From a virus (Duplodnaviria; Caudoviricetes): a stretch of DNA of 53,270 nucleotides. The notes under the pieces were generated by a model, which was not told where the DNA came from, did no database searches, and worked only from the letters and a program-made list of their open reading frames with translations. Position numbers and translations under genes: made by a program. Below are positions 42,034 through 48,563 of the stretch, in pieces; within the stretch, counting starts at the first letter, position 1; every line of letters starts with the position of its first letter. Location: the IMG/VR virus record IMGVR_UViG_3300037264_001837, positions 1 through 53,270 of that record. One strand, written 5' to 3'.

Positions 42034-43503
42034 TCAGGGGACCGGCGCGGGCCGGGTGATGCTCAGCGGCGGGGCTACCGCCGACCCCGACACGGAGCGT
42101 TCCCGGATCCAGCGAAGCACCTGGCTGAGCGCGTCGACCCGGTCCTTTCGCGGCGAGCCCGGGAACGTCGTGACCTCCGCGACGAAGTCCGCGACCCACG
42201 GCGCGGATTCCGGGAGCCAGAGCTTGCCGGCCTGGATCAGCGGTGTCTCGACCTCGAGCCGCGTGACCTTGTCGCGCTGCCCGGGATCAATCGCGATGAC
42301 CGGAAGCCGGGACCCCCGCCGGAGGTACTGGATGATCCCCTGGCCCGAGTCGCGGTCCTCGATCAGGAGCGCGGACGGATTCCAGTGCTCCGCGAGTTCT
42401 CGGACCTTGGGCAGGAGGTCGGGGATCTCGAGCCGCTGAGCGAACACGTCCCAGACCTCGAGCCGGTCCGGGAACTCCGCGATCGTGATGCACGCCTGGT
42501 TCGCGCTCGACTCCTTGGCCTTCGACGCGCAGTCCCAGGACTGGATGATCCGGATCGGATCCGCGCCGCGGGACGTGTAGCGATTCGACAGCCAGGCGCG
42601 CTTGATCATCGCGCCCTCGCGAGGCACCGGGTTCTGCTGATAGATCGACTCCCACGACGCGGGGTCCATGGCTGCCTTCTGCTCGAGCAGGAACTCCAGC
42701 GGCTTGAGCTCCGGGAACAGGGCCTCGCCGCGCTTGCGGTGCGGCTCGTCCTCGATCGCGATCGCGGGGTAGCTCACCACGTCGATCGTCGGATCGTCCG
42801 CGATCATGTGTCCTACGAGGTCCGCGAGGTTCCACCGGGTCATGATGACGATCAGCCCGTAGGCCTTCGAGAAACGCGTCCGGAACACGTCGCGGAACCA
42901 GTCCCATACCCGCGCCTGGATGATCGTGCTGTCCGCGGTCTGGCGGTCCTTGACCGGATCGTCGATCATCCCGAGGTCGAGCGGCTCTCCGGTCAGCGGC
43001 CCCTCGACTGTCGTGTTCCGGAACGAGCCGATCTGACCCACCAACTCAAGGTGCGTCGAGTTGCGACGCGGCTTGCCCGCTTGGGTGACTACGTTCTCAT
43101 CGCAGAGCCGCGTCGCGGGGAACACGCGCCGATAGGTCTCGGAGTCGATCAGGCGCTGGAGCCGGAGGTTCGCCCGGGTGCCGAGGTAGTCGGAGTAGCT
43201 CGCGAAGCCTGAGCGCATCCCGGGGCACCGGCCGAGACACCAGCCGAAGAAGTCCGTCACGATCATCGACTTGCCGTGCTGCGACGGCGCCGTGAGTACC
43301 AGGGCCGGCCGCTCGCCCGCGAGCATGCGCGCGAGGAACCGTTCGAGCCGCTCGGCCGCGTCGCGCTGCCACCAGCCGAGGACGTAGTCCGGATTGACAA
43401 GCCGGAAGAAGTCCCAGTAGTGCCGGCGCGCGAGCTCCTCGTCGACGACCCGCGAGTCGAGCAGCTCAAGGTCGATCCCCGCGCCGCGCTCAGCCCTTGC
43501 CAC
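42034..43503 (-). CDS. terL: terminase large subunit
   Basis: Walker A APSQHGKS, Walker B IDDPVKD, MTRW..DL.G, YQQ.P, SWD.A, IED..SG, D.VDA.SQ. Confidence 0.95.
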   Translation of the reverse strand: MARAERGAGIDLELLDSRVVDEELARRHYWDFFRLVNPDYVLGWWQRDAAERLERFLARMLAGERPALVLTAPSQHGKSMIVTDFFGWCLGRCPGMRSGFASYSDYLGTRANLRLQRLIDSETYRRVFPATRLCDENVVTQAGKPRRNSTHLELVGQIGSFRNTTVEGPLTGEPLDLGMIDDPVKDRQTADSTIIQARVWDWFRDVFRTRFSKAYGLIVIMTRWNLADLVGHMIADDPTIDVVSYPAIAIEDEPHRKRGEALFPELKPLEFLLEQKAAMDPASWESIYQQNPVPREGAMIKRAWLSNRYTSRGADPIRIIQSWDCASKAKESSANQACITIAEFPDRLEVWDVFAQRLEIPDLLPKVRELAEHWNPSALLIEDRDSGQGIIQYLRRGSRLPVIAIDPGQRDKVTRLEVETPLIQAGKLWLPESAPWVADFVAEVTTFPGSPRKDRVDALSQVLRWIRERSVSGSAVAPPLSITRPAPVP

Positions 43504-44002
43504 GGGGCTTCGTCCGGCCCTGGATCGCGCGCAGGGCGAGCAGGTCTTCGTCCGAGAGCCCGCTCAGGTCCACAGCCACCGGGCGCTCGGGGTTCCCGCT
43601 CAGCTCGAGGTGGTGCCGCTCGCGGTACTCGGGGACGACGCGTCGGGCTTCGAGCTCGACGAGCCGGGGAAAGTAGAGCGTCTTGACGCCAACGATCGCG
43701 CCCTTCTCGATGATCGGCTCCTGCTTCCCCTGCCACGCGTACTCCTGGACCTTGCCGATCGTCTCTTCCTGGAACGCCTCCCAGGCCTCGCGGCACATCG
43801 CGTCGAACTCGGGATCGGCCTTGCGCTTGATCTGCACCGCCCGCTTGGAGCAGCCGACCGACGCGGCCGCGACCCCGGGCCGGCCGTGCTTGCGCATCTC
43901 CACGCAGAAGCGCTCCATGCGCTCGCGGGTCCACCGAACTTGCTTGGCGGTCGTCGGGGGCCCAAGAATGTCTTCGTTCGGGTCAGGCACGCGCCGAGCC
44001 AT
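43490..44002 (-). CDS. terS: terminase small subunit
   Basis: HTH, D.EF.....EA, PEYRE, E.SG....P, LSDE.L; directly upstream of and overlapping terL. Confidence 0.85.
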   Translation of the reverse strand: MARRVPDPNEDILGPPTTAKQVRWTRERMERFCVEMRKHGRPGVAAASVGCSKRAVQIKRKADPEFDAMCREAWEAFQEETIGKVQEYAWQGKQEPIIEKGAIVGVKTLYFPRLVELEARRVVPEYRERHHLELSGNPERPVAVDLSGLSDEDLLALRAIQGRTKPRGKG

Positions 44003-44005
44003 GGC

Positions 44006-44818
44006 TCACCCCAGGATGTCGTCGTGGAGCGCCTGGGTCGGAGTTGAACCGCCCTCTCCCACCTGGTCGGTGGGTGCCTCGCCACTAGGCTTCAGGCGCT
44101 CGCCTCGATACATCCTAGCACCCAGCTCGCCAATCCTGGCGAAGGGGATGATGGGCACAGTGAGCCGCTCCTGGACTCCCGCCCGCAGGAACCGGACGTA
44201 GCGGAGTTGAAATCCAGACAGGGGAGCAGCCCCCGCGGCCTTCGCTAGAGCCCCCACGCTCAACGGCGACGTGCCGCAGGTCATGCGGATCTCTTCTCGC
44301 ATACGCGTCGCACGGTTCAGCTCAAGGTTTATCTTGTGCGTCACTCTCCCATCGGGGAAGCGTAGAAGTTGCCGGTTTTTCTTGATCCCCGTGAGGACGA
44401 ATCCCGACGCCCGGTAGATCGTCCCATCTCCACATTGGGCGGCATCGGCGAACGACACTACCCATTCCAGACTCGGGTACTGCTTCGACAAGAGCCTGAA
44501 CGCGACAGCGAGCGCCCGGGACTCGGAGTTCCTAGGGAGCGCATTTGAGAAAGCCATGCGGTTGAGCTCGCAGAAGCCATCCCACTTCGTATCCCGCACC
44601 AACCAAGCCATGAACTCTTTGCGCATCGAGGGGCCGAACTGCATGACCCCCTCGAGCCGCCCGTCCCAGACCACCCCAAGATGAATGTTCGAGTTGTTCA
44701 CGTACCGGCCGCTGTAGTGCAGCTTGGAACAGAGCCGACGCGCCACGTCGGCTCGGATTGGCTCGACCCGCAGCGCCTTGCAATCGCTACTCGGCGAGGA
44801 AAGCGGAACAGATCCCAT
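44006..44818 (-). CDS. mom: Mom-family (GNAT) adenine hypermodification enzyme
   Basis: HYS, GV.QFG, ELNRM, PRNSESR, VSFAD, G.GTIYRASGF..TG; start codon uncertain. Confidence 0.85.
   Translation of the reverse strand: MGSVPLSSPSSDCKALRVEPIRADVARRLCSKLHYSGRYVNNSNIHLGVVWDGRLEGVMQFGPSMRKEFMAWLVRDTKWDGFCELNRMAFSNALPRNSESRALAVAFRLLSKQYPSLEWVVSFADAAQCGDGTIYRASGFVLTGIKKNRQLLRFPDGRVTHKINLELNRATRMREEIRMTCGTSPLSVGALAKAAGAAPLSGFQLRYVRFLRAGVQERLTVPIIPFARIGELGARMYRGERLKPSGEAPTDQVGEGGSTPTQALHDDILG
44025..44099 (-). tRNA. non-canonical tRNA-Gly(ACC)-like element embedded in the mom coding sequence
   Basis: GCGCCTG AA GCCT AGTGGCG AGGC A CCCAC CGACCAG GTGGG AGAG GGCGG TTCAACT CCGACC CAGGCGC T CCA: perfect 7-bp acceptor, 4-bp D and 5-bp anticodon stems, T-loop, U73 and CCA. 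Confidence 0.85.
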
Positions 44819-45545
44819 AGAGCGCGTTCCCGTTCTTGTTCTCGTTGACTTCCGAGACACCGAGCCCCCGCTCGATGGCAAGCCGCAACGCGGATTCAAC
44901 CGAATCTTTCTGCGACGCATGGACGGTGAAACTCATCAGGTGGAAGTCTTTCGTGGGCGCGGCTATCTGCTCTGGGAGCTGACCCCGTAGACCCGCGAGC
45001 GCGTCGGACTGCCGCTGCGCGACCTGCTCGATCTCGACTCCCTGGAACCTGAGCATCGGCGCGATGGCCGCGAGCTGTAGCCGGTGCAGCTCCGCGAACT
45101 TGGCCGCGCTCTCCTCGGTCACGTCGCCGTGGTGCGAGCTCGCGAGCATGACTAGTTCCGCGGCCTCGGTCTCGCTCTCGGCCTGGATCTCCGAGACCGG
45201 GATGCGCGCGGGGATCACGTGGCCTTGCTCTTCCAGCCACTCCAGCGACGGCACGCGCCCCGCGCCGTCGATCACGTAGCGGTGGCCCTCCCACACGAAC
45301 ACCGGGAACGCGAAGCCCTTGCCAGTGCGGTCGAGGATCGCGCCACCCAGGCGCTCGAGGTCCCTGGGCTTGCGGCTCTTGAGCGTGTTGCGCTCGTAGC
45401 CCCGGAGCTCGCCCCAGGGGATCGTAGGCCCGCCAGCGGCCACCCGGACCGTGATGCACGGCCCGTCGCAAGGCGGCTTCGCGACGCACTTTCGCGCGCG
45501 AGAAGGCCCGAGGATGTCGTCGTCCCCCTGCACGCCTCGGCTCAT
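44787..45545 (-). CDS. ParB/Srx-like N-terminal domain protein
   Basis: GFAFPVFVW, VIDGAGR (DGHxR-like), C-terminal F..MSFT.H..Q...V..AL and NENKNGNAL. Confidence 0.7.
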   Translation of the reverse strand: MSRGVQGDDDILGPSRARKCVAKPPCDGPCITVRVAAGGPTIPWGELRGYERNTLKSRKPRDLERLGGAILDRTGKGFAFPVFVWEGHRYVIDGAGRVPSLEWLEEQGHVIPARIPVSEIQAESETEAAELVMLASSHHGDVTEESAAKFAELHRLQLAAIAPMLRFQGVEIEQVAQRQSDALAGLRGQLPEQIAAPTKDFHLMSFTVHASQKDSVESALRLAIERGLGVSEVNENKNGNALYGICSAFLAE

Positions 45546-45565
45546 CGGTCTGTCTCGCTCTCGGT

Positions 45566-45637
45566 GTTCACGCCGGAGGCCTTCTCGTTCACGGCTCAGG
45601 CCCTGCTGTTCAAGATCTCCGGCCCACCGTTCACGGC
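45566..45637. repeat. four GTTCA(C/A) boxes at exact 21-bp period upstream of the late operon
   Basis: GTTCA at 45566, 45587, 45608 and 45629; two copies extend to CGTTCACGGC. Confidence 0.75.
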
Positions 45638-45642
45638 CAAGC

Positions 45643-45804
45643 CTACTGCTGCGAGCCAGTGAACCCGCCCCGCTCGGGCTGCAGGGGCCCGCTCCGGACC
45701 GTAGGACCCGAGGACCGCGGCGCGAGAGCCCAGAGCAGCAACACGAGCCCCACGACAGCCAACGTGGGGATCAGAGCGGCCTTGAATCGATCCCGGGTCG
45801 TCAC
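45643..45804 (-). CDS. small single-TM protein
   Basis: GTGA coupling; ALIPTLAVVGLVLLLWALA. Confidence 0.5.
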   Translation of the reverse strand: MTTRDRFKAALIPTLAVVGLVLLLWALAPRSSGPTVRSGPLQPERGGFTGSQQ

Positions 45805-45986
45805 GCGAGCGGGTCCAGAACCAGCGGGGCAACCGCCACCCGACGGAGGTACTCGGCCGCGGAGATCCCACGAGCAGCCGCGGCACGGTCGAGGGCCTGC
45901 CGCTCCACGGTCGCGAGCCGGACCGCGACGCAAGGGCTCCCCCGCCCCCGGGGAGTCGTCGGCCTGCCACGTCGCCTCGGATCCAT
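45801..45986 (-). CDS. ribbon-helix-helix (CopG/Arc/MobC-like) regulator
   Basis: RGRP, VAVRL...E...L..AA...G.S.AEYLR. Confidence 0.75.
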   Translation of the reverse strand: MDPRRRGRPTTPRGRGSPCVAVRLATVERQALDRAAAARGISAAEYLRRVAVAPLVLDPLA

Positions 45987-45992
45987 ACCGCC

Positions 45993-46022
45993 AGGATATA
46001 CCTTCGGGATTACCGCCGTCAA
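45993..46022 (-). promoter_or_regulatory. sigma70-type promoter predicting a leaderless RHH mRNA
   Basis: TTGACG-18 nt-TATCCT, then 6 nt to the ATG at 45986. Confidence 0.55.
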
Positions 46023-46103
46023 CAAACCGCGCCCCGCGGGCCCGCATACACTTCCACACTGGCCCACAAGACGTATAGCCGCGCAAACCCGCACCAGAAG
46101 CCC

Positions 46104-46142
46104 GTACTCTATACTACTATATATTCTATATGTATGTAGTAC
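46104..46142. other. AT-rich imperfect palindrome (candidate origin or packaging site)
   Basis: GTACTCTATACTACTATATATTCTATATGTATGTAGTAC, 10 of 39 nt G+C, in the divergent intergenic region. Confidence 0.5.
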
Positions 46143-46253
46143 GCACATAAGGGGGGTATACGCGTTATGGGGGGAAGTGGGACGGCGTAGAAAGTCGGAA
46201 AAGTATCGCGCCGCCGCGCTTGGTGCGCGCGACAAAAGCCGAAGTATAAAATC

Positions 46254-46283
46254 TTGCCGTTACTAAATCGGGCGAGGTACTAT
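46254..46283 (+). promoter_or_regulatory. sigma70-type promoter for the primase-helicase
   Basis: TTGCCG-18 nt-TACTAT upstream of a GAGAGG RBS and ATG 46308. Confidence 0.5.
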
Positions 46284-46307
46284 GCGAGCCCCGAGAGGAC
46301 ACCGCCC

Positions 46308-48563
46308 ATGCCAGACCCGGCCGACCTCAATCCGTACCACCGCGCGGGCTACGAGCTGATCCCCCTGAGCCCCCCGGACGGCCCCGGGAGCTCCGCGGGA
46401 AAGGCGCCCTGCGAACGCCGGTGGCGGACCAACCGACCGCTCAACCGAGAGCTCGCCGCCGCGCACATGGAGGCCGGCCGGAACGTCGGGGTGCGGCTCC
46501 GCGCGGGAGAGCTCGTGATCGACGTGGACCCACGGAACTTCGCCCCTGGGGTCGACTCGCTCGCGACCCTAGCCGCGCTCGTAGGGCTCGACCCTGCCGC
46601 GTGCCCGGCGGTCACGACCGGCGGCGGGGGCCGGCACCTCTACCTGCGCAAACCCCCCGCGGTCACCCTCGTCGACTCACTGCCCGCGCATCCCGGGGTC
46701 GAGTTCAAGAGCCTGGGCCGGCAGGTCGTAGCCGCGGGATCCGTCCATCAGACGGGGCGGCGGTACGCCTGGGAGGACTGGCCTCCGCTCGAGCACGCGC
46801 CCGAGGCCCCGCCCGCGCTACTCGCGCTCGCGGTCCGTCCCCCGCCCGCGGTCGAGGGGGGCGGGATGCTGACTCCCGAGGCCGTCGCGGAGTGCCTTGG
46901 TCAGCTCCCGATCGCGAATTTCCGGGACCATGACCAGTGGCTCGCGATCATGATGGCCTGCCACCATGCCTCCGGCGGGGAAGCGCGTGCTGAGTTCGTC
47001 CAGTGGGCCGCGAGCGACCCGCGCTACGCGGCTCGCGCATGGGAGACCGGCAGACGCTGGGACTCGCTCCGGCCGGGGAAGGGTGTGACGGTCAGGACGC
47101 TCTTCCGGGCTGTACTGGACGCCGGAGGCCGGCTACCCCCCGAGGTCGGAGCCGAAGACGACTTCATCGGCCCACCCGCGGAAGCGGACAAGCAGGAGCA
47201 GCGAGCCGAAGGAGTCAGCCTGCTCGAGCAGATGAACGGGGAGTACTGCACCGTCAATGACGGCGGGAAGTTCCGCGTGTTCTCTCGCCAGGTCGATCCG
47301 GTCCTCAAGCGTGAGTGCTACAGCCGGCATACTAAGGCCGACTTCGAGGCGCTCTGCATGCACCGGCAGGTTGAGGTGCCAGGCCCCAATGGCAGGAGTC
47401 GCGTGACCCCCGTAGGGGAGTGGTGGCTCAAGCACCCTAGACACCGGCACTACCGCGGTGTCACCTGCGACCCCGAAGGCTCGCCCCCGGAGCACTTGAA
47501 TCTCTGGTCTGGGTGGGGAGTCGAGCCCGGGGACGGTGATTGGTCCGCGCTCCGCGACTTGATCGGCGAGGTTCTCTGCGACGGGGAGGAGCAGAACTTC
47601 CGGTACGTCCTGGACTGGATCGCGAACATGGTCCAGCGACCCGCGTCTCCCGCCGAGGCCGCGATCTGTTTCAAGGGCGACCTGGGCGTAGGGAAGGGGA
47701 CGCTCGGACGCGCGCTCTTGCGGATCGCGGGTCGGCACGGACTTCCGGTCTCGAGCCCGGCCCATATCGTCGGGCGCTTCAACGCGCACCTGCGCGACTG
47801 CGTGTTTCTCTTCGCAGACGAGGCCTTCTGGGGCGGCGACAAGCAGGGCGAGGGCGCGCTGAAGGCGTTGATCACAGAGCCCCTGGTCTCCTACGAGCGC
47901 AAGGGCCACGACCTCGAGATGGGCCGGAACATGATCCACGTCATGATGGCGTCGAACAACGAGTGGGTGATCCCCGCGACACTCGGGGAGCGCCGGTTCT
48001 TGATGTGCGAGGCGAATACGGCAAAGGCGAAATCCGACGGGGCGCGCTTCGAGCGGGTCAACGCGCAGCTGAGGTCAGGAGGTCTTGGGGCCATGCTGCG
48101 GGACATGCTCGTCCGCGACATCCGCGGGTGGCATCCGCGGAACTCGATCCCGGTGACGCGCGCGTTGGTCGACCAGATCATCCAGGGCCTCGATCATGTC
48201 GGGACCTGGTGGTACAAGATCCTGCAGGAGGGCCGCATCCCAGGCGTAGCCGACTGGAGTACACGAATCGCGGTCGCGACGCAGCTCCTCCAGGACGACT
48301 ACGCGGAGACGTGCGACCAGACCGCGTACCGGGGCCGGCGCAGCATCGAGAGCGTCCTGGGGCGCAGGCTGGACGCGCTCGTACCGGGCCGGCGGAAGTT
48401 CCAGATGCTGGTCCCTGAGGGGTCGGGGCTCAGGACCGATTCGCATGGGCGCGCTGTCCACTACGAGCTGCCTTCACTCGCCGACTGCCGTGCAGCATTC
48501 GAGGCGCGGCTGGGCACAACGATCGCGTGGCCCCAGCCGGATCCGGACGAGCTGCTCCGGTGA
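46308..48563 (+). CDS. Prim-Pol + PriCT-2 + SF3 (D5/DUF5906-like) primase-helicase
   Basis: GKAP, NVGV, VIDVDPRN, TGGGGRHLY, W....MA.H, Walker A GDLGVGKG, FADE, SNN, ERRF. Confidence 0.93.
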   Translation: MPDPADLNPYHRAGYELIPLSPPDGPGSSAGKAPCERRWRTNRPLNRELAAAHMEAGRNVGVRLRAGELVIDVDPRNFAPGVDSLATLAALVGLDPAACPAVTTGGGGRHLYLRKPPAVTLVDSLPAHPGVEFKSLGRQVVAAGSVHQTGRRYAWEDWPPLEHAPEAPPALLALAVRPPPAVEGGGMLTPEAVAECLGQLPIANFRDHDQWLAIMMACHHASGGEARAEFVQWAASDPRYAARAWETGRRWDSLRPGKGVTVRTLFRAVLDAGGRLPPEVGAEDDFIGPPAEADKQEQRAEGVSLLEQMNGEYCTVNDGGKFRVFSRQVDPVLKRECYSRHTKADFEALCMHRQVEVPGPNGRSRVTPVGEWWLKHPRHRHYRGVTCDPEGSPPEHLNLWSGWGVEPGDGDWSALRDLIGEVLCDGEEQNFRYVLDWIANMVQRPASPAEAAICFKGDLGVGKGTLGRALLRIAGRHGLPVSSPAHIVGRFNAHLRDCVFLFADEAFWGGDKQGEGALKALITEPLVSYERKGHDLEMGRNMIHVMMASNNEWVIPATLGERRFLMCEANTAKAKSDGARFERVNAQLRSGGLGAMLRDMLVRDIRGWHPRNSIPVTRALVDQIIQGLDHVGTWWYKILQEGRIPGVADWSTRIAVATQLLQDDYAETCDQTAYRGRRSIESVLGRRLDALVPGRRKFQMLVPEGSGLRTDSHGRAVHYELPSLADCRAAFEARLGTTIAWPQPDPDELLR

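Follow-up and report, generated by a model that had tools for sequence, protein, structure and literature searches.

The locus examined here raises the question of whether a phage encoding a Mom enzyme relies on the glycine tRNAs of its host or carries an RNA of its own for this purpose and, in the latter case, what such an RNA retains of an ordinary tRNA. Mom is a GNAT enzyme that moves glycine from Gly-tRNAGly to the N6 of adenine in DNA. As reported in 2026, it is the first enzyme shown to use a charged tRNA for DNA modification, in work that assumed scavenging of host tRNA-Gly by the phage and that counts more than 8000 Mom homologues (PMC13219725). The main texts of that report and of its 2023 preprint make no mention of a Mom-linked tRNA gene, their supplements lying outside this statement. 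The DNA analyzed here, referred to as the window, is the whole 53,270-nt stretch of IMG/VR record IMGVR_UViG_3300037264_001837, from a virus of the Caudoviricetes (Duplodnaviria). On its (-) strand, at 44006..44920, lies an ORF listed at 304 aa that is assigned to the Mom family by Pfam PF25680 (155.8 bits, the cut-off being 27.1, with E 1.5e-45 over aa 50-260, nt 44141-44773) and by the Mom-like PHROG 1384 (E 2.1e-44). The tail of this ORF, aa ~274-298, is a tRNA-like sequence read in frame, with the stop codon at 44008-44006. The gene for the terminase small subunit follows on the same strand (43490..44002; PHROG 4044, E 1.1e-21), starting 23 nt after the CCA of the tRNA-like sequence. Upstream, also on the (-) strand, an ORF of 252 aa (44787..45545) ends in a stretch of 70 aa similar to the C-terminal part of a Psychrobacter phage Y8A protein, the ParB/Srx protein encoded ahead of Mom there (BLASTP, E 1e-7); a Pfam search of the 252-aa ORF gave no ParB_N match.

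Positions 44099..44025 of the (-) strand fold as a 75-nt tRNA-Gly-like cloverleaf with an encoded UCCA end. This cloverleaf is the RNAfold minimum-energy structure (-36.1 kcal/mol, z = -2.75), a stability matched by 4 of 200 shuffles. Its 7-bp acceptor stem pairs a 5' strand GCGCCUG, followed by A8 (44092) and A9, with a 3' strand CAGGCGC, which together with U73 (44028) and the encoded CCA (44027-44025) occupies 44025..44035. The D-arm GCCU/AGUGGCG/AGGC is followed by A26, the variable region is the 4-nt AGAG, and the T-arm (44036..44053) reads GGCGG/UUCAACU/CCG-A-CC, with an extra A at 44038 placed between pairs 51:63 and 50:64. The anticodon-like hairpin (44058..44074) contains G33 (44068), A34 (44067), C35 (44066) and C36 (44065), and may be read with a 7-nt loop, C32 G33 A34 C35 C36 A37 G38, between CCCAC and GUGGG. 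In RNAfold, however, C32 and G38 can pair, extending the stem CCCAC(C)/(G)GUGGG to 6 bp and leaving a 5-nt loop, GACCA; by this prediction the region is better described as a pentaloop. A sequence-only reading of this DNA had listed A8, G33, an ACC anticodon and a bulged A in the T-stem, all of which we recover on the (-) strand, with the refinement that a pentaloop describes the anticodon region better than a 7-nt loop containing G33 does.

These features set the element apart from a canonical elongator tRNA, for which U8 and an uninterrupted 5-bp T-stem would be expected in place of A8 and the extra A at 44038, and a 7-nt anticodon loop with U33 in place of G33 and the pairable C32:G38. Parts of the canonical elbow are kept: the D-loop has GG and the T-loop UUC. 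The determinants of bacterial GlyRS are given in PMC10464925 as G1:C72, C2:G71, U73, C35 and C36, and this identity set is complete in the window. The element seems, by its predicted features, to be built for glycine loading and not for work on the ribosome, both of which remain untested.

Phages often carry tRNA genes, and one proposal is that the element is one of these, a tRNA-Gly serving codon supply in translation that stands beside mom for unrelated reasons. Standard tools lend this little support: ARAGORN reported 0 tRNAs in the window and nothing in 60 Mom loci scanned (and is consequently unusable for defining the element), and an Rfam search of the window at permissive E-values returned no tRNA match. 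When applied locally to copies of the element, ARAGORN made 33 calls of 'tRNA-???(tc)' and 6 of '(ac)', that is, with two-base anticodons. The gathering score of RF00005 was reached by one of seven related loci tested (L025, 31.7 vs 29 bits), a result that favors the proposal for that locus; no Rfam family covering these Mom-linked RNAs was found for the window and the seven loci. The sole Rfam match for the window element was to tRNA-Sec (RF01852), at 19.3 bits vs a gathering score of 47 (E 0.92), an identity we rejected in view of this score, the 4-nt variable region and the triplet ACC. tRNA-Sec is rejected by EF-Tu, and the two RNAs are alike in having more nucleotides than usual in the acceptor/T-stem stack; the Mom-linked element differs in lacking the long variable arm, the UCA anticodon and the 8/5 or 9/4 stem arrangement. 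A covariance model of the Mom-linked RNA family, R1, scores the window element at 80.1 bits, although this is not independent support, since the window is among the 41 training rows. Comparison by blastn with 50,697 phage records gave a single match (83% identity, E 9e-12), to a gene of Salinibacter phage B2_17 annotated in GenBank as tRNA-Gly. That annotation again speaks for an ordinary tRNA; the gene sits directly downstream of a Mom gene, as in the window, and relative to the window element it shows four double changes that keep the pairing and none that breaks a pair.

The association with Mom was approached from both sides. When viral contigs were surveyed for the 18-nt T-arm motif alone, at least 118 stretches were found, and among the matches listed a Mom ORF lay alongside in 107 of 120 sites (119 loci plus the window). 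Of the 13 sites without one, 7 represent one unrelated tRNA, listed seven times and called tRNA-Lys(ttt) by local ARAGORN, and 5 are near a locus end. In the reverse direction, loci were chosen by protein only, with a 12-sequence alignment of the window's Mom clade as query, so that these surveys cover that clade only. At least 594 viral stretches matched, and 592 of the 594 matches listed were Mom relatives. In the best 80 of these at least 594 loci, the element was detected with default filters in 71 and with filters off in 7 more (E 7e-6 to 2.5e-3); the remaining 2 end before the expected site and could not be evaluated. The element is thus present in 78 of the 78 evaluable loci among these best 80, just downstream of Mom and on the same strand. 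Prophage Mom loci from bacterial genomes of many phyla gave 74 of 80 (62 under default filters, and a further 12 once the filters were switched off). The genomic linkage of element and Mom is near-complete; dedication of the RNA to Mom is inferred from it, and use by Mom has not been shown. Hundreds of related viruses carry this pairing, as predicted from their genomes. No such RNA was found in Mu and 10 other cultured Mom phages tested. A match in Methylophilales phage Melnitz was left out of account, since it is a normal tRNA-Trp located some 1 kb from Mom.

Conservation was assessed in 57 distinct viral copies, taken from the Mom loci chosen by protein only, with 62 prophage copies counted separately. 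Features attributed to charging are retained: G1:C72, C2:G71 and U73 are each present in 57 of 57 viral copies, CC occurs in the anticodon-like loop of 56, and CCA is encoded in 53. Across 41 distinct sequences pairing in the acceptor stem is complete (100%), with compensatory changes at 5 of its 7 pairs, and the covariation score of 0.441 (0.128 for shuffles) was reached by 0 of 500 shuffles. Features attributed to decoding are lost. A 7-nt anticodon loop is predicted in only 3/57 viral and 1/62 prophage copies; most viral copies have instead a pentaloop, NNCCA, closed by a covarying pair (C:G in 18, G:C in 12, U:A in 6 and A:U in 4 of 40 pentaloops), the commonest loops being GACCA (15/57) and GUCCA (13/57). 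The base equivalent to position 33 is G in 32 and U in only 12 of the 57, and wobble position 34 varies freely (A 26, U 25, G 6). The T-stem carries an extra nucleotide, reported as an extra A, in 55/57 viral copies and in 56/62 prophage copies (A 35, U 18, C 3). The T-loop opens with TTC in only 4 viral copies, the commonest start being UGC (22/57). A D hairpin is predicted in only 18 of the 57, and forms lacking the D-arm extend down to 67-70 nt. At the level of sequence, a conserved RNA structure linked to Mom is established, as are the retention of its identity nucleotides and the loss of its decoding features.

These counts bear on several predictions of the sequence-only reading, which had proposed beforehand that conservation of the T-stem bulge and of a non-U33 base be checked across mom-associated copies; both are conserved, and the aminoacylation identity it took to be intact is so in all or nearly all of the viral copies. 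A8, which it counted among the deviations, holds for the window's clade (49/57 viral copies) but not generally, being found in 20/62 prophage copies and replaced by U8 in a clade in which the element is embedded at the 5' end of the gene. The same counts weigh heavily against an ordinary translating tRNA. The 39 of 57 viral copies without a D hairpin, the rarity of a 7-nt loop, the minority status of U33, the unconstrained wobble base, the interrupted T-stem, the scarcity of a TTC T-loop, the silence of ARAGORN in the window and 60 Mom loci, and the near-complete linkage to Mom are all difficult to reconcile with decoding, and we regard that reading as very unlikely. Like ordinary phage tRNA genes, the Mom-linked elements are tRNA-derived, reside in phage genomes and are presumably co-transcribed with phage genes; they differ in being undetectable as decoding tRNAs, in an anticodon loop that is not 7 nt, and in being tied to one enzyme gene instead of lying in tRNA clusters.

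It could also be supposed that the window element is a decayed tRNA pseudogene, the remnant of an integration site, or a fold arising by chance in GC-rich coding DNA, for it breaks canonical tRNA rules and is missed by standard detectors. Decay had already been doubted from the window alone, and random, unconserved stem mismatches were named as one outcome that would refute the alternative. No such mismatches were seen; hundreds of loci show these same departures, and their stems display compensatory changes without a build-up of mismatches. Recent copies of one sequence are excluded, as related loci share 20-60% Mom protein identity. The element has both of its acceptor strands and is located between the mom and terminase genes with no adjoining integrase, contrary to what an integration remnant would suggest. 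On the grounds of covariation and placement the attachment-site and pseudogene reading was rejected, its probability being in our estimate practically negligible; judged from sequence alone, the window element is more than chance would provide.

A further possibility is that selection acts on the protein, the cloverleaf being a by-product of a conserved Mom-terminal peptide motif such as ...GGS(T/I)PT.... The fixed frame on read-through, in which the T-arm reads GGC GGU UCA AnU CCG ACC, is compatible with this. Covariation in the acceptor stem, however, alters residues on both sides while keeping the pairs (CGD/SPL, CDD/SSL, RAD/SAL), and the 18-nt T-arm is identical even at synonymous sites across Mom proteins that are only 20-28% identical. 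Moreover, depending on the locus, the element is N-terminal, C-terminal, after the stop or on the other strand. This reading was likewise rejected on covariation and placement, and we find it scarcely credible.

The interpretation we favor, with a probability of roughly 0.6, is that the element is a dedicated, non-translating glycine carrier for Mom, its charging, its avoidance of EF-Tu and its use by Mom all being inferred. The element would be a structured RNA with tRNA-Gly as its ancestor, inherited together with Mom. It would be transcribed with mom at the head of a late packaging operon, cut by RNase P at G1 and trimmed at the 3' side to the encoded CCA. Host GlyRS would then glycylate it by way of the retained identity set, and the glycine would pass from the RNA to Mom. 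The shrunken anticodon loop, and the extra nucleotide in the T-stem region read by EF-Tu, would keep the RNA away from EF-Tu and the ribosome, an avoidance to which loss of the TPsiC-loop and D-arm features would add in many relatives. The outcome would be a private pool of activated glycine for Mom that does not compete with late protein synthesis. There are no RNA data for the window, for which one DNA sequencing run but no RNA run was listed, and excision, charging, EF-Tu avoidance and use by Mom are each inferred; the T-stem bulge in particular is a proxy read from sequence, with neither binding data nor a computed effect behind its proposed role as an EF-Tu barrier, the published additive scheme for T-stem pairs making no provision for a bulge.

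A cellular parallel exists in the staphylococcal non-proteogenic tRNAGly species, whose affinity for EF-Tu, as described in PMC7826273, is lowered by changes in T-stem pairs 49-65, 50-64 and 51-63, and which have UGC replacing UUC in the T-loop and feed FmhB. Like these RNAs (NP1-NP3, serving the Fem/FmhB peptidoglycan glycyl-transferases), the Mom-linked element is an extra tRNA-Gly that keeps the nucleotides for GlyRS recognition and is altered in the T-loop, where UGC is again the commonest start among the viral copies, and in the T-stem region that sets EF-Tu affinity; service to a non-ribosomal aminoacyl-transferase is, for the Mom element, only proposed. As far as that source describes them, NP1-NP3 come from free-standing cellular genes and fold as ordinary cloverleaves; their UCC anticodon loop has 7 nt, and their 5-bp T-stem is unbroken but made of weaker pairs. 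The Mom element, in contrast, is virus-borne: its T-stem contains an inserted nucleotide, its anticodon loop is usually a pentaloop, its D-arm is often missing, and it overlaps the ORF of its proposed partner enzyme; its glycine acceptor would be DNA. Mu Mom belongs to the same family, PF25680, and its glycyl-tRNA-dependent chemistry is thus presumably the same. Mu differs in having com, not a tRNA-like element, beside mom, and its enzyme works with all three host isoacceptors; the authors suggest that recognition is mainly of the 3' acceptor end of the tRNA (PMC13219725). The chemistry thus has no need of a dedicated carrier, as Mu Mom uses host isoacceptors and Mu and the 10 other phages lack the element. 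In addition, GlyRS is reported to require the tRNA arms and the whole L-shape (PMC10464925), so that pentaloop and D-arm-less forms may charge poorly.

The relation of the element to its coding sequence introduces the main competing explanation, namely a cis-acting tRNA mimic within mom mRNA that never donates glycine, and that is bound or cut by Mom, GlyRS or RNase P so as to control Mom translation or the fate of the message. The thrS operator, which mimics tRNA-Thr, provides a model. In the window's clade the element forms a 3' tail of the Mom ORF, which reads through it in 52 of 71 viral loci and stops inside it in 12; since the two overlap, excision would destroy that copy of the mRNA, a conflict that a cis-acting role fits at least as well. 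In a second Mom clade the element lies inside the 5' coding end of the ORF in 42 of 42 distinct loci, at about codons 2-30, with an in-frame ATG, GTG or TTG no more than 45 nt upstream of G1 in 34 of the 42 (often at -13 or -4), and initiation should be held back by a stable fold placed immediately behind the start codon. Mu, in which com is annotated, controls mom translation via RNA structure and Com. The placement of other copies is nonetheless hard to explain in cis. The ORF stops ahead of the element in 7 of the 71 loci, the RNA, itself unchanged, sits at the 5' end of the gene in one clade and at the 3' end in the other, and an internal operator needs no chargeable end, whereas U73, CCA, C35 and C36 are conserved as described. 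Intact copies lie on the strand opposite to Mom at four loci (L004, L036, L080 and L258), and the element is repeated in tandem in L141, L254, L259 and, as two copies, in Psychrobacter phage Y8A. In Microbacterium phage Bush an ordinary tRNA-Gly(ccc) stands 33 nt from the Mom gene on the opposite strand; this canonical neighbor could be cited for an ordinary tRNA, and together with the tandem and opposite-strand copies it provides evidence for a trans-acting product. We consider the cis-acting mimic unlikely, but not to be dismissed.

A dedicated carrier and an embedded position might be combined in a single scheme, which we offer tentatively, as a possibility more apt to be wrong than right. 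The mom transcript would be bifunctional, each copy being either translated or cut into carrier, and ribosome transit against RNase P action at the embedded cloverleaf would set a low ratio of enzyme to carrier for a toxic enzyme; the extra T-stem nucleotide would be both an EF-Tu anti-determinant and a mark for recognition by Mom. If true, this would be the first virus-encoded non-proteinogenic tRNA and the first dedicated to DNA hypermodification, with the carrier lying within the coding region for the very enzyme that would use it up. A structured RNA gene overlapping the ORF of its partner enzyme is in any case an unusual genetic arrangement. The 3' tRNA-like structures of plant viruses, which are aminoacylatable, have a pseudoknotted acceptor arm and act in replication or translation of RNA genomes, similarly place a tRNA-shaped, CCA-ending fold within a longer coding RNA, and the Mom element resembles them in lying, in the window's clade, at the 3' end of an ORF. 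It differs as a plain cloverleaf with both acceptor strands, borne by a DNA phage, which RNase P could release.

Overall, the earlier interpretation of the element as a chargeable RNA reserved for Mom is supported by these comparisons, though it remains an inference that GlyRS charges the RNA, that EF-Tu binds it weakly and that Mom uses it. The predicted features indicate that Mom phages and prophages in a large, cross-phylum group encode a tRNA-Gly of their own, re-engineered so that features for decoding are gone and those for charging remain. Cultured carriers of the element exist in Psychrobacter phage vB_PmaS_Y8A and Salinibacter phage B2_17. If confirmed, the finding would explain a group of RNAs that tRNA finders either miss or call as tRNAs with two-base anticodons. 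It would also show which parts of a tRNA are needed by GlyRS and Mom, evolution having pruned the rest in the smallest D-arm-less forms, and would make available a minimal glycine carrier of natural origin, perhaps one orthogonal to translation. More broadly, the concept of a non-proteinogenic tRNA, drawn from cell-wall synthesis in staphylococci, would then apply to viruses and to the chemistry of DNA as well.

The minus strand of the window carries, at 44099..44025, a 75-nt cloverleaf with a perfectly paired acceptor stem (GCGCCUG/CAGGCGC), A at both positions 8 and 9, a D-arm (GCCU/AGUGGCG/AGGC) in which both D-loop G's are retained, an anticodon arm CCCAC-CGACCAG-GUGGG, a variable region AGAG, a T-arm GGCGG-UUCAACU-CCG-A-CC with one surplus nucleotide on its 3' side (A at 44038), and U73 followed by an encoded CCA. 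The sequence-only reading had taken this to be a non-proteinogenic tRNA-Gly reserved for the glycine-transferring enzyme Mom, and all four features on which it relied (A8, G33, an ACC anticodon with A34, and the bulged T-stem A) are present here. The cloverleaf is the minimum-energy fold in RNAfold (-36.1 kcal/mol, z = -2.75, with 4 of 200 shuffles equally stable), and C32 pairs with G38 in that fold to leave a 5-nt loop, GACCA. Standard detectors are blind to the element: ARAGORN reported 0 tRNAs in the window, and Rfam at permissive thresholds yielded a sole match, to tRNA-Sec, at 19.3 bits against a gathering score of 47.

The element is read in frame within the 3' tail of a Mom-family ORF on the minus strand (44920..44006; listed at 304 aa), which matches PF25680 over aa 50-260 (E 1.5e-45) as well as PHROG 1384 and whose stop lies 16 nt past the CCA. 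The terminase small subunit gene (PHROG 4044) starts 23 nt past the CCA; next come a gene whose product has a terminase large-subunit domain and a 541-aa ORF. Upstream of mom, a 252-aa ORF (44787-45545, minus strand) has no ParB_N match, and only its C-terminal 70 aa match the ParB/Srx-type protein preceding Mom in Psychrobacter phage vB_PmaS_Y8A. A ParB_N/Srx-type gene stands directly before Mom, often overlapping its start, in Salinibacter phage B2_17 (L001:4684-5205), Y8A (L200:873-1484), phiEf11 (L210:990-1511) and Microbacterium phage Bush (L211:969-1502), the L-numbers denoting loci fetched for comparison. Only one sigma-70-like promoter match, resting on consensus alone, occurs in 43400-46400, at 45993-46022 on the minus strand; situated ahead of the ORF preceding mom, it fits a single minus-strand transcript comprising that ORF, mom, the tRNA-like element and the terminase genes. 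A 769-aa DNA primase (PHROG 1156, E 6e-85; 46254-48563, plus strand) is divergent from this mom-packaging operon.

A blastn search of a 2.2-kb window region against 50,697 phage records returned one hit only (77 nt, 83%, E 9e-12), the annotated tRNA-Gly of B2_17. Gene order in that phage (ParB_N protein, Mom with PF25680 at E 5.8e-26, 'tRNA-Gly', small HTH protein, 542-aa ORF, portal gene) matches the arrangement in the window. A8-A9, G33, the T-arm including the extra A, and U73 are common to the two RNAs. Between them are four double substitutions, all of which preserve pairing (6:67, 12:23, 29:41, 30:40), and none that breaks a pair; position 34 also differs, with A in the window versus U in B2_17.

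Linkage of the element to Mom was surveyed from both sides. In viral contigs, at least 118 stretches matched an 18-nt T-arm motif including the extra A, and nearly all of the matches listed were tRNA-Gly-like cloverleaves with a GCG start, a CGC-U-CCA end and an NCC triplet. When a Mom profile built iteratively from the window protein was applied to 120 sites among these listed matches (119 loci and the window), the Mom domain was located upstream on the same strand within 300 nt at 56 sites, immediately downstream on the same strand at 47, on the opposite strand at three, and 415 nt away at one. The 13 sites without a Mom domain comprise seven instances of one unrelated tRNA, called tRNA-Lys(ttt) by local ARAGORN, five sites near a locus end, and a single fragment (L092). 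From the Mom side, and free of RNA-sequence bias, viral contigs were scanned with 12 aligned Mom sequences, all belonging to the window's clade, in which the element occupies the 3' end of the ORF; at least 594 stretches were matched, at least 592 of them encoding Mom relatives, and the best 80 were retained. The Mom-side surveys are confined in this way to the best 80 of many more relatives, and to the window's clade. The covariance model used on these loci was built from 41 distinct RNA-side sequences, including that of the window, whose own score is therefore not independent. Default filters gave 72 same-strand matches in 71 of the 80 viral loci, lying 92-293 nt past the point where the Mom profile match ends in 69 of the 71. 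With filters off, the seven remaining evaluable loci likewise gave matches (E 7e-6 to 2.5e-3) where the element was expected, so that it occurs in 78 of 78 evaluable loci among the best 80 of at least 592, the other two ending short of that position; ARAGORN, applied to 60 of these 80, found no tRNA in any of them. In bacterial genome contigs, with titles that include Bradyrhizobium, Micavibrio, Caulobacter, Limnohabitans, Clostridia, Lachnospiraceae, Coriobacteriia, Larkinella, Planctomycetota and Myxococcota, 168 of 225 matched stretches encode Mom relatives. Among the 80 loci retained, the element was found in 62 with default filters and in 12 more with filters off; six prophage loci gave no match, one of them a 744-nt contig.

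Mom relatives were also detected by tblastn in 58 cultured-phage records, 14 of which were fetched and searched with the covariance model, filters off. No element match at E <=0.01 was obtained in Mu, JD024, pAEv1818, PMBT69, PAN70, TCUEAP3, PX29, DSL-LC03, SWEP2, phiEf11 or Thornton, and this absence from 11 tested Mom phages argues that the element belongs to particular Mom clades rather than to Mom in general. The sole match in Methylophilales phage Melnitz, about 1 kb from Mom, is called tRNA-Trp by ARAGORN and was rejected. In Y8A, the 165 nt that separate Mom from the small terminase gene contain two tandem copies lacking a D-arm (L200:2138-2278), and a ParB/Srx gene is located upstream. 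Bush (PP978824.1, L211:2154-2228) has an annotated tRNA-Gly(ccc) of canonical form, including U33 and a normal T-stem, on the opposite strand 33 nt past a Mom-like 'acetyltransferase', itself preceded by a ParB-like gene; this tRNA may exemplify the same association at an unspecialised stage.

As a rule, the RNA and the Mom ORF overlap. Among the 71 viral loci of the window's clade with default-filter matches, the ORF stop lies beyond the element in 52 and inside it in 12 (within the first ~15 nt in 11, at 49 nt in one); in seven it falls 5-15 nt short of the element. A second clade of Moms, with 20-28% identity to that of the window, bears the element at the opposite, 5' end of the gene. The matches listed include 47 such loci (42 distinct; L007, L012, L025 at 1160-1235, and L069 are examples), and in all 47 the reading frame giving the T-arm as GGC GGU UCA AnU CCG ACC is open for at least 147 codons into Mom. 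Inspection of 26 of them by eye showed that the stretch from the CCA to the conserved Mom N-terminus mostly lacks an in-frame start. Across the 42 distinct loci, an in-frame ATG occurs within 45 nt upstream of G1 in 23 (often at -13 or -4, sometimes after a Shine-Dalgarno-like sequence) and a GTG or TTG in 11; an in-frame start is present only in the D-loop in seven, and one is otherwise arranged. Acceptor-stem covariation alters the encoded amino acids on both sides, so it is the pairing rather than the peptide that is under selection; together with the variable placement, this covariation excludes a peptide motif. The overlap, especially at the 5' end, favors a tRNA mimic acting in cis within the mom mRNA, since a stable fold just past the start codon should limit initiation, and RNase P cleavage would part the start codon from the gene. 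We keep this as the less likely of the two readings that remain.

Copy number and orientation vary. Some 5'-embedded loci have two consecutive Mom-like ORFs, only the first with a tRNA-like element (L061:2301-3690, L007:1006-2482, L034, L075, L118, L035, L038). Tandem copies after a single Mom gene occur in L141:3274-3411, L254:2727-2899 and L259:2777-2949, as in Y8A, and in the second copy of L254 and L259 the 5-nt T-stem 3' strand is uninterrupted. L004, L036, L080 and L258 have intact copies on the opposite strand to Mom.

Across the 41 distinct 76-nt RNA-side members, 100% of acceptor-stem cells are paired, with compensatory changes at five of seven pairs and with pairs 1-3 essentially fixed as G:C, C:G and G:C; the covariation score (0.441 versus 0.128 for shuffles) was matched by 0 of 500 shuffles and drops when partners are slid. 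T-stem invariance in this set is by construction of the T-arm search. The covariation, the recurrence of identical departures, and the fact that both acceptor strands are found between mom and the packaging genes exclude chance, decay or an integration remnant. Features were counted in 57 distinct viral copies from the Mom-side survey and in 62 distinct prophage copies. In the viral set, G1:C72, C2:G71 and U73 are each present in 57, G3:C70 and the encoded CCA each in 53, and CC in the hairpin loop in 56; in the prophage set, acceptor pairs 1-3 are G:C, C:G and G:C in 61, U73 occurs in 61, CCA in 48, and CC in the loop in 61. Judged from sequence, the persisting nucleotides are exactly the bacterial GlyRS determinants published in PMC10464925 (G1:C72, C2:G71, C35, C36, U73).

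Other positions depart from this constancy. The T-stem bulge, whose conservation across mom-associated copies had been named earlier as a check, proved to be a family-wide hallmark: an extra A interrupts the 3' strand in 55/57 viral copies, flanked by covarying pairs (e.g. GGCAG/CUG-A-CC, GGGAG/CUC-A-CC, GACGG/CCG-A-UC), and an extra nucleotide is found in 56/62 prophage copies (A 35, U 18, C 3). In prophages of Clostridia/Bacillota (L261, L271, L283 and others) the extra nucleotide is U or C instead of A (CCG-U-CC, CCG-U-UC, CCG-C-AC); the presence of an insertion is thus conserved, its identity varying between host groups. A8 is typical of the window's clade (49/57) but not of the prophage set (20/62) or the 5'-embedded clade, where U8 prevails. 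Non-U33 (in the viral copies G 32, U 12, A 7, C 6) and a free position 34, just 5' of CC (in the viral copies A 26, U 25, G 6), are general in the family, as one aspect of a wider remodelling of the anticodon loop. When the stretch flanked by acceptor stem and T-arm is folded thermodynamically, a 5-nt loop is predicted in 40 of 57 viral copies, closed by C:G in 18, G:C in 12, U:A in 6 and A:U in 4, and a 7-nt loop in three viral and one prophage copy. On these predicted sizes, the loop is remodelled to a small one still displaying C35-C36-A37; local ARAGORN listed 33 'tRNA-???(tc)' and six '(ac)', two-base anticodons that correspond to 6-nt loops. As a parser control, among 59 distinct tRNAs found by local ARAGORN across all loci, 0 of 27 non-bulge sequences were put in the bulge model. 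TTC opens the T-loop in only four of the 57 viral copies (UGC 22, GGC 10, CGC 7), and a D hairpin is predicted in 18. Many viral copies (L120-L199, e.g. L170:3142-3209, L177:2947-3014) are 67-70 nt long without a D-arm, and in these the T-loops too are non-canonical (UGCAACA, GGCAGCA, AGCAUCA); the two partners that form the tRNA elbow were apparently lost jointly. The window copy, with D-arm, GG and UUC kept, is among the more tRNA-like members. Loop sizes, an unconstrained wobble base, changes in both T-stem and T-loop, and a D-arm that is often missing together make an ordinary decoding tRNA very unlikely.

In double-stranded DNA, Mu Mom modifies adenine at N6 with glycine taken from Gly-tRNAGly; the enzyme accepts all three E. 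coli tRNAGly isoacceptors and is inactive with mischarged Gly-tRNAAla, recognition being mainly via the 3' acceptor end, as the authors of the study suggest (Silva et al., Nat Commun 2026, PMC13219725). A word search found no mention of a tRNA-like element or tRNA gene beside mom in the main texts of that paper and of the 2023 preprint, supplements not being covered; nothing on a Mom/tRNA linkage was found in the open-access literature, including a jumbo-phage review that discusses Mom, subscription journals being largely outside this scope. On the strength of such word searches of open-access main texts, the linkage is apparently unpublished.

We favor, at a probability of about 0.6, the interpretation that the element is a trans-acting glycine carrier, although there are no RNA data, and excision, charging, avoidance of EF-Tu and use by Mom are all inferred. 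Supporting it are the retention of a chargeable U73-CCA end with the anticodon determinants, the tandem copies in L141, L254, L259 and Y8A, the intact opposite-strand copies, and the ordinary tRNA-Gly beside Mom in Bush. A precedent exists in the staphylococcal non-proteogenic tRNAGly species, which supply FmhB, keep GlyRS recognition, bind EF-Tu weakly via T-stem changes and carry UGC in the T-loop, EF-Tu otherwise sequestering the FmhB substrate (PMC7826273). A carrier in trans and a mimic in cis are not mutually exclusive. If the mom transcript is either translated or processed, the outcome would be little enzyme and much carrier.
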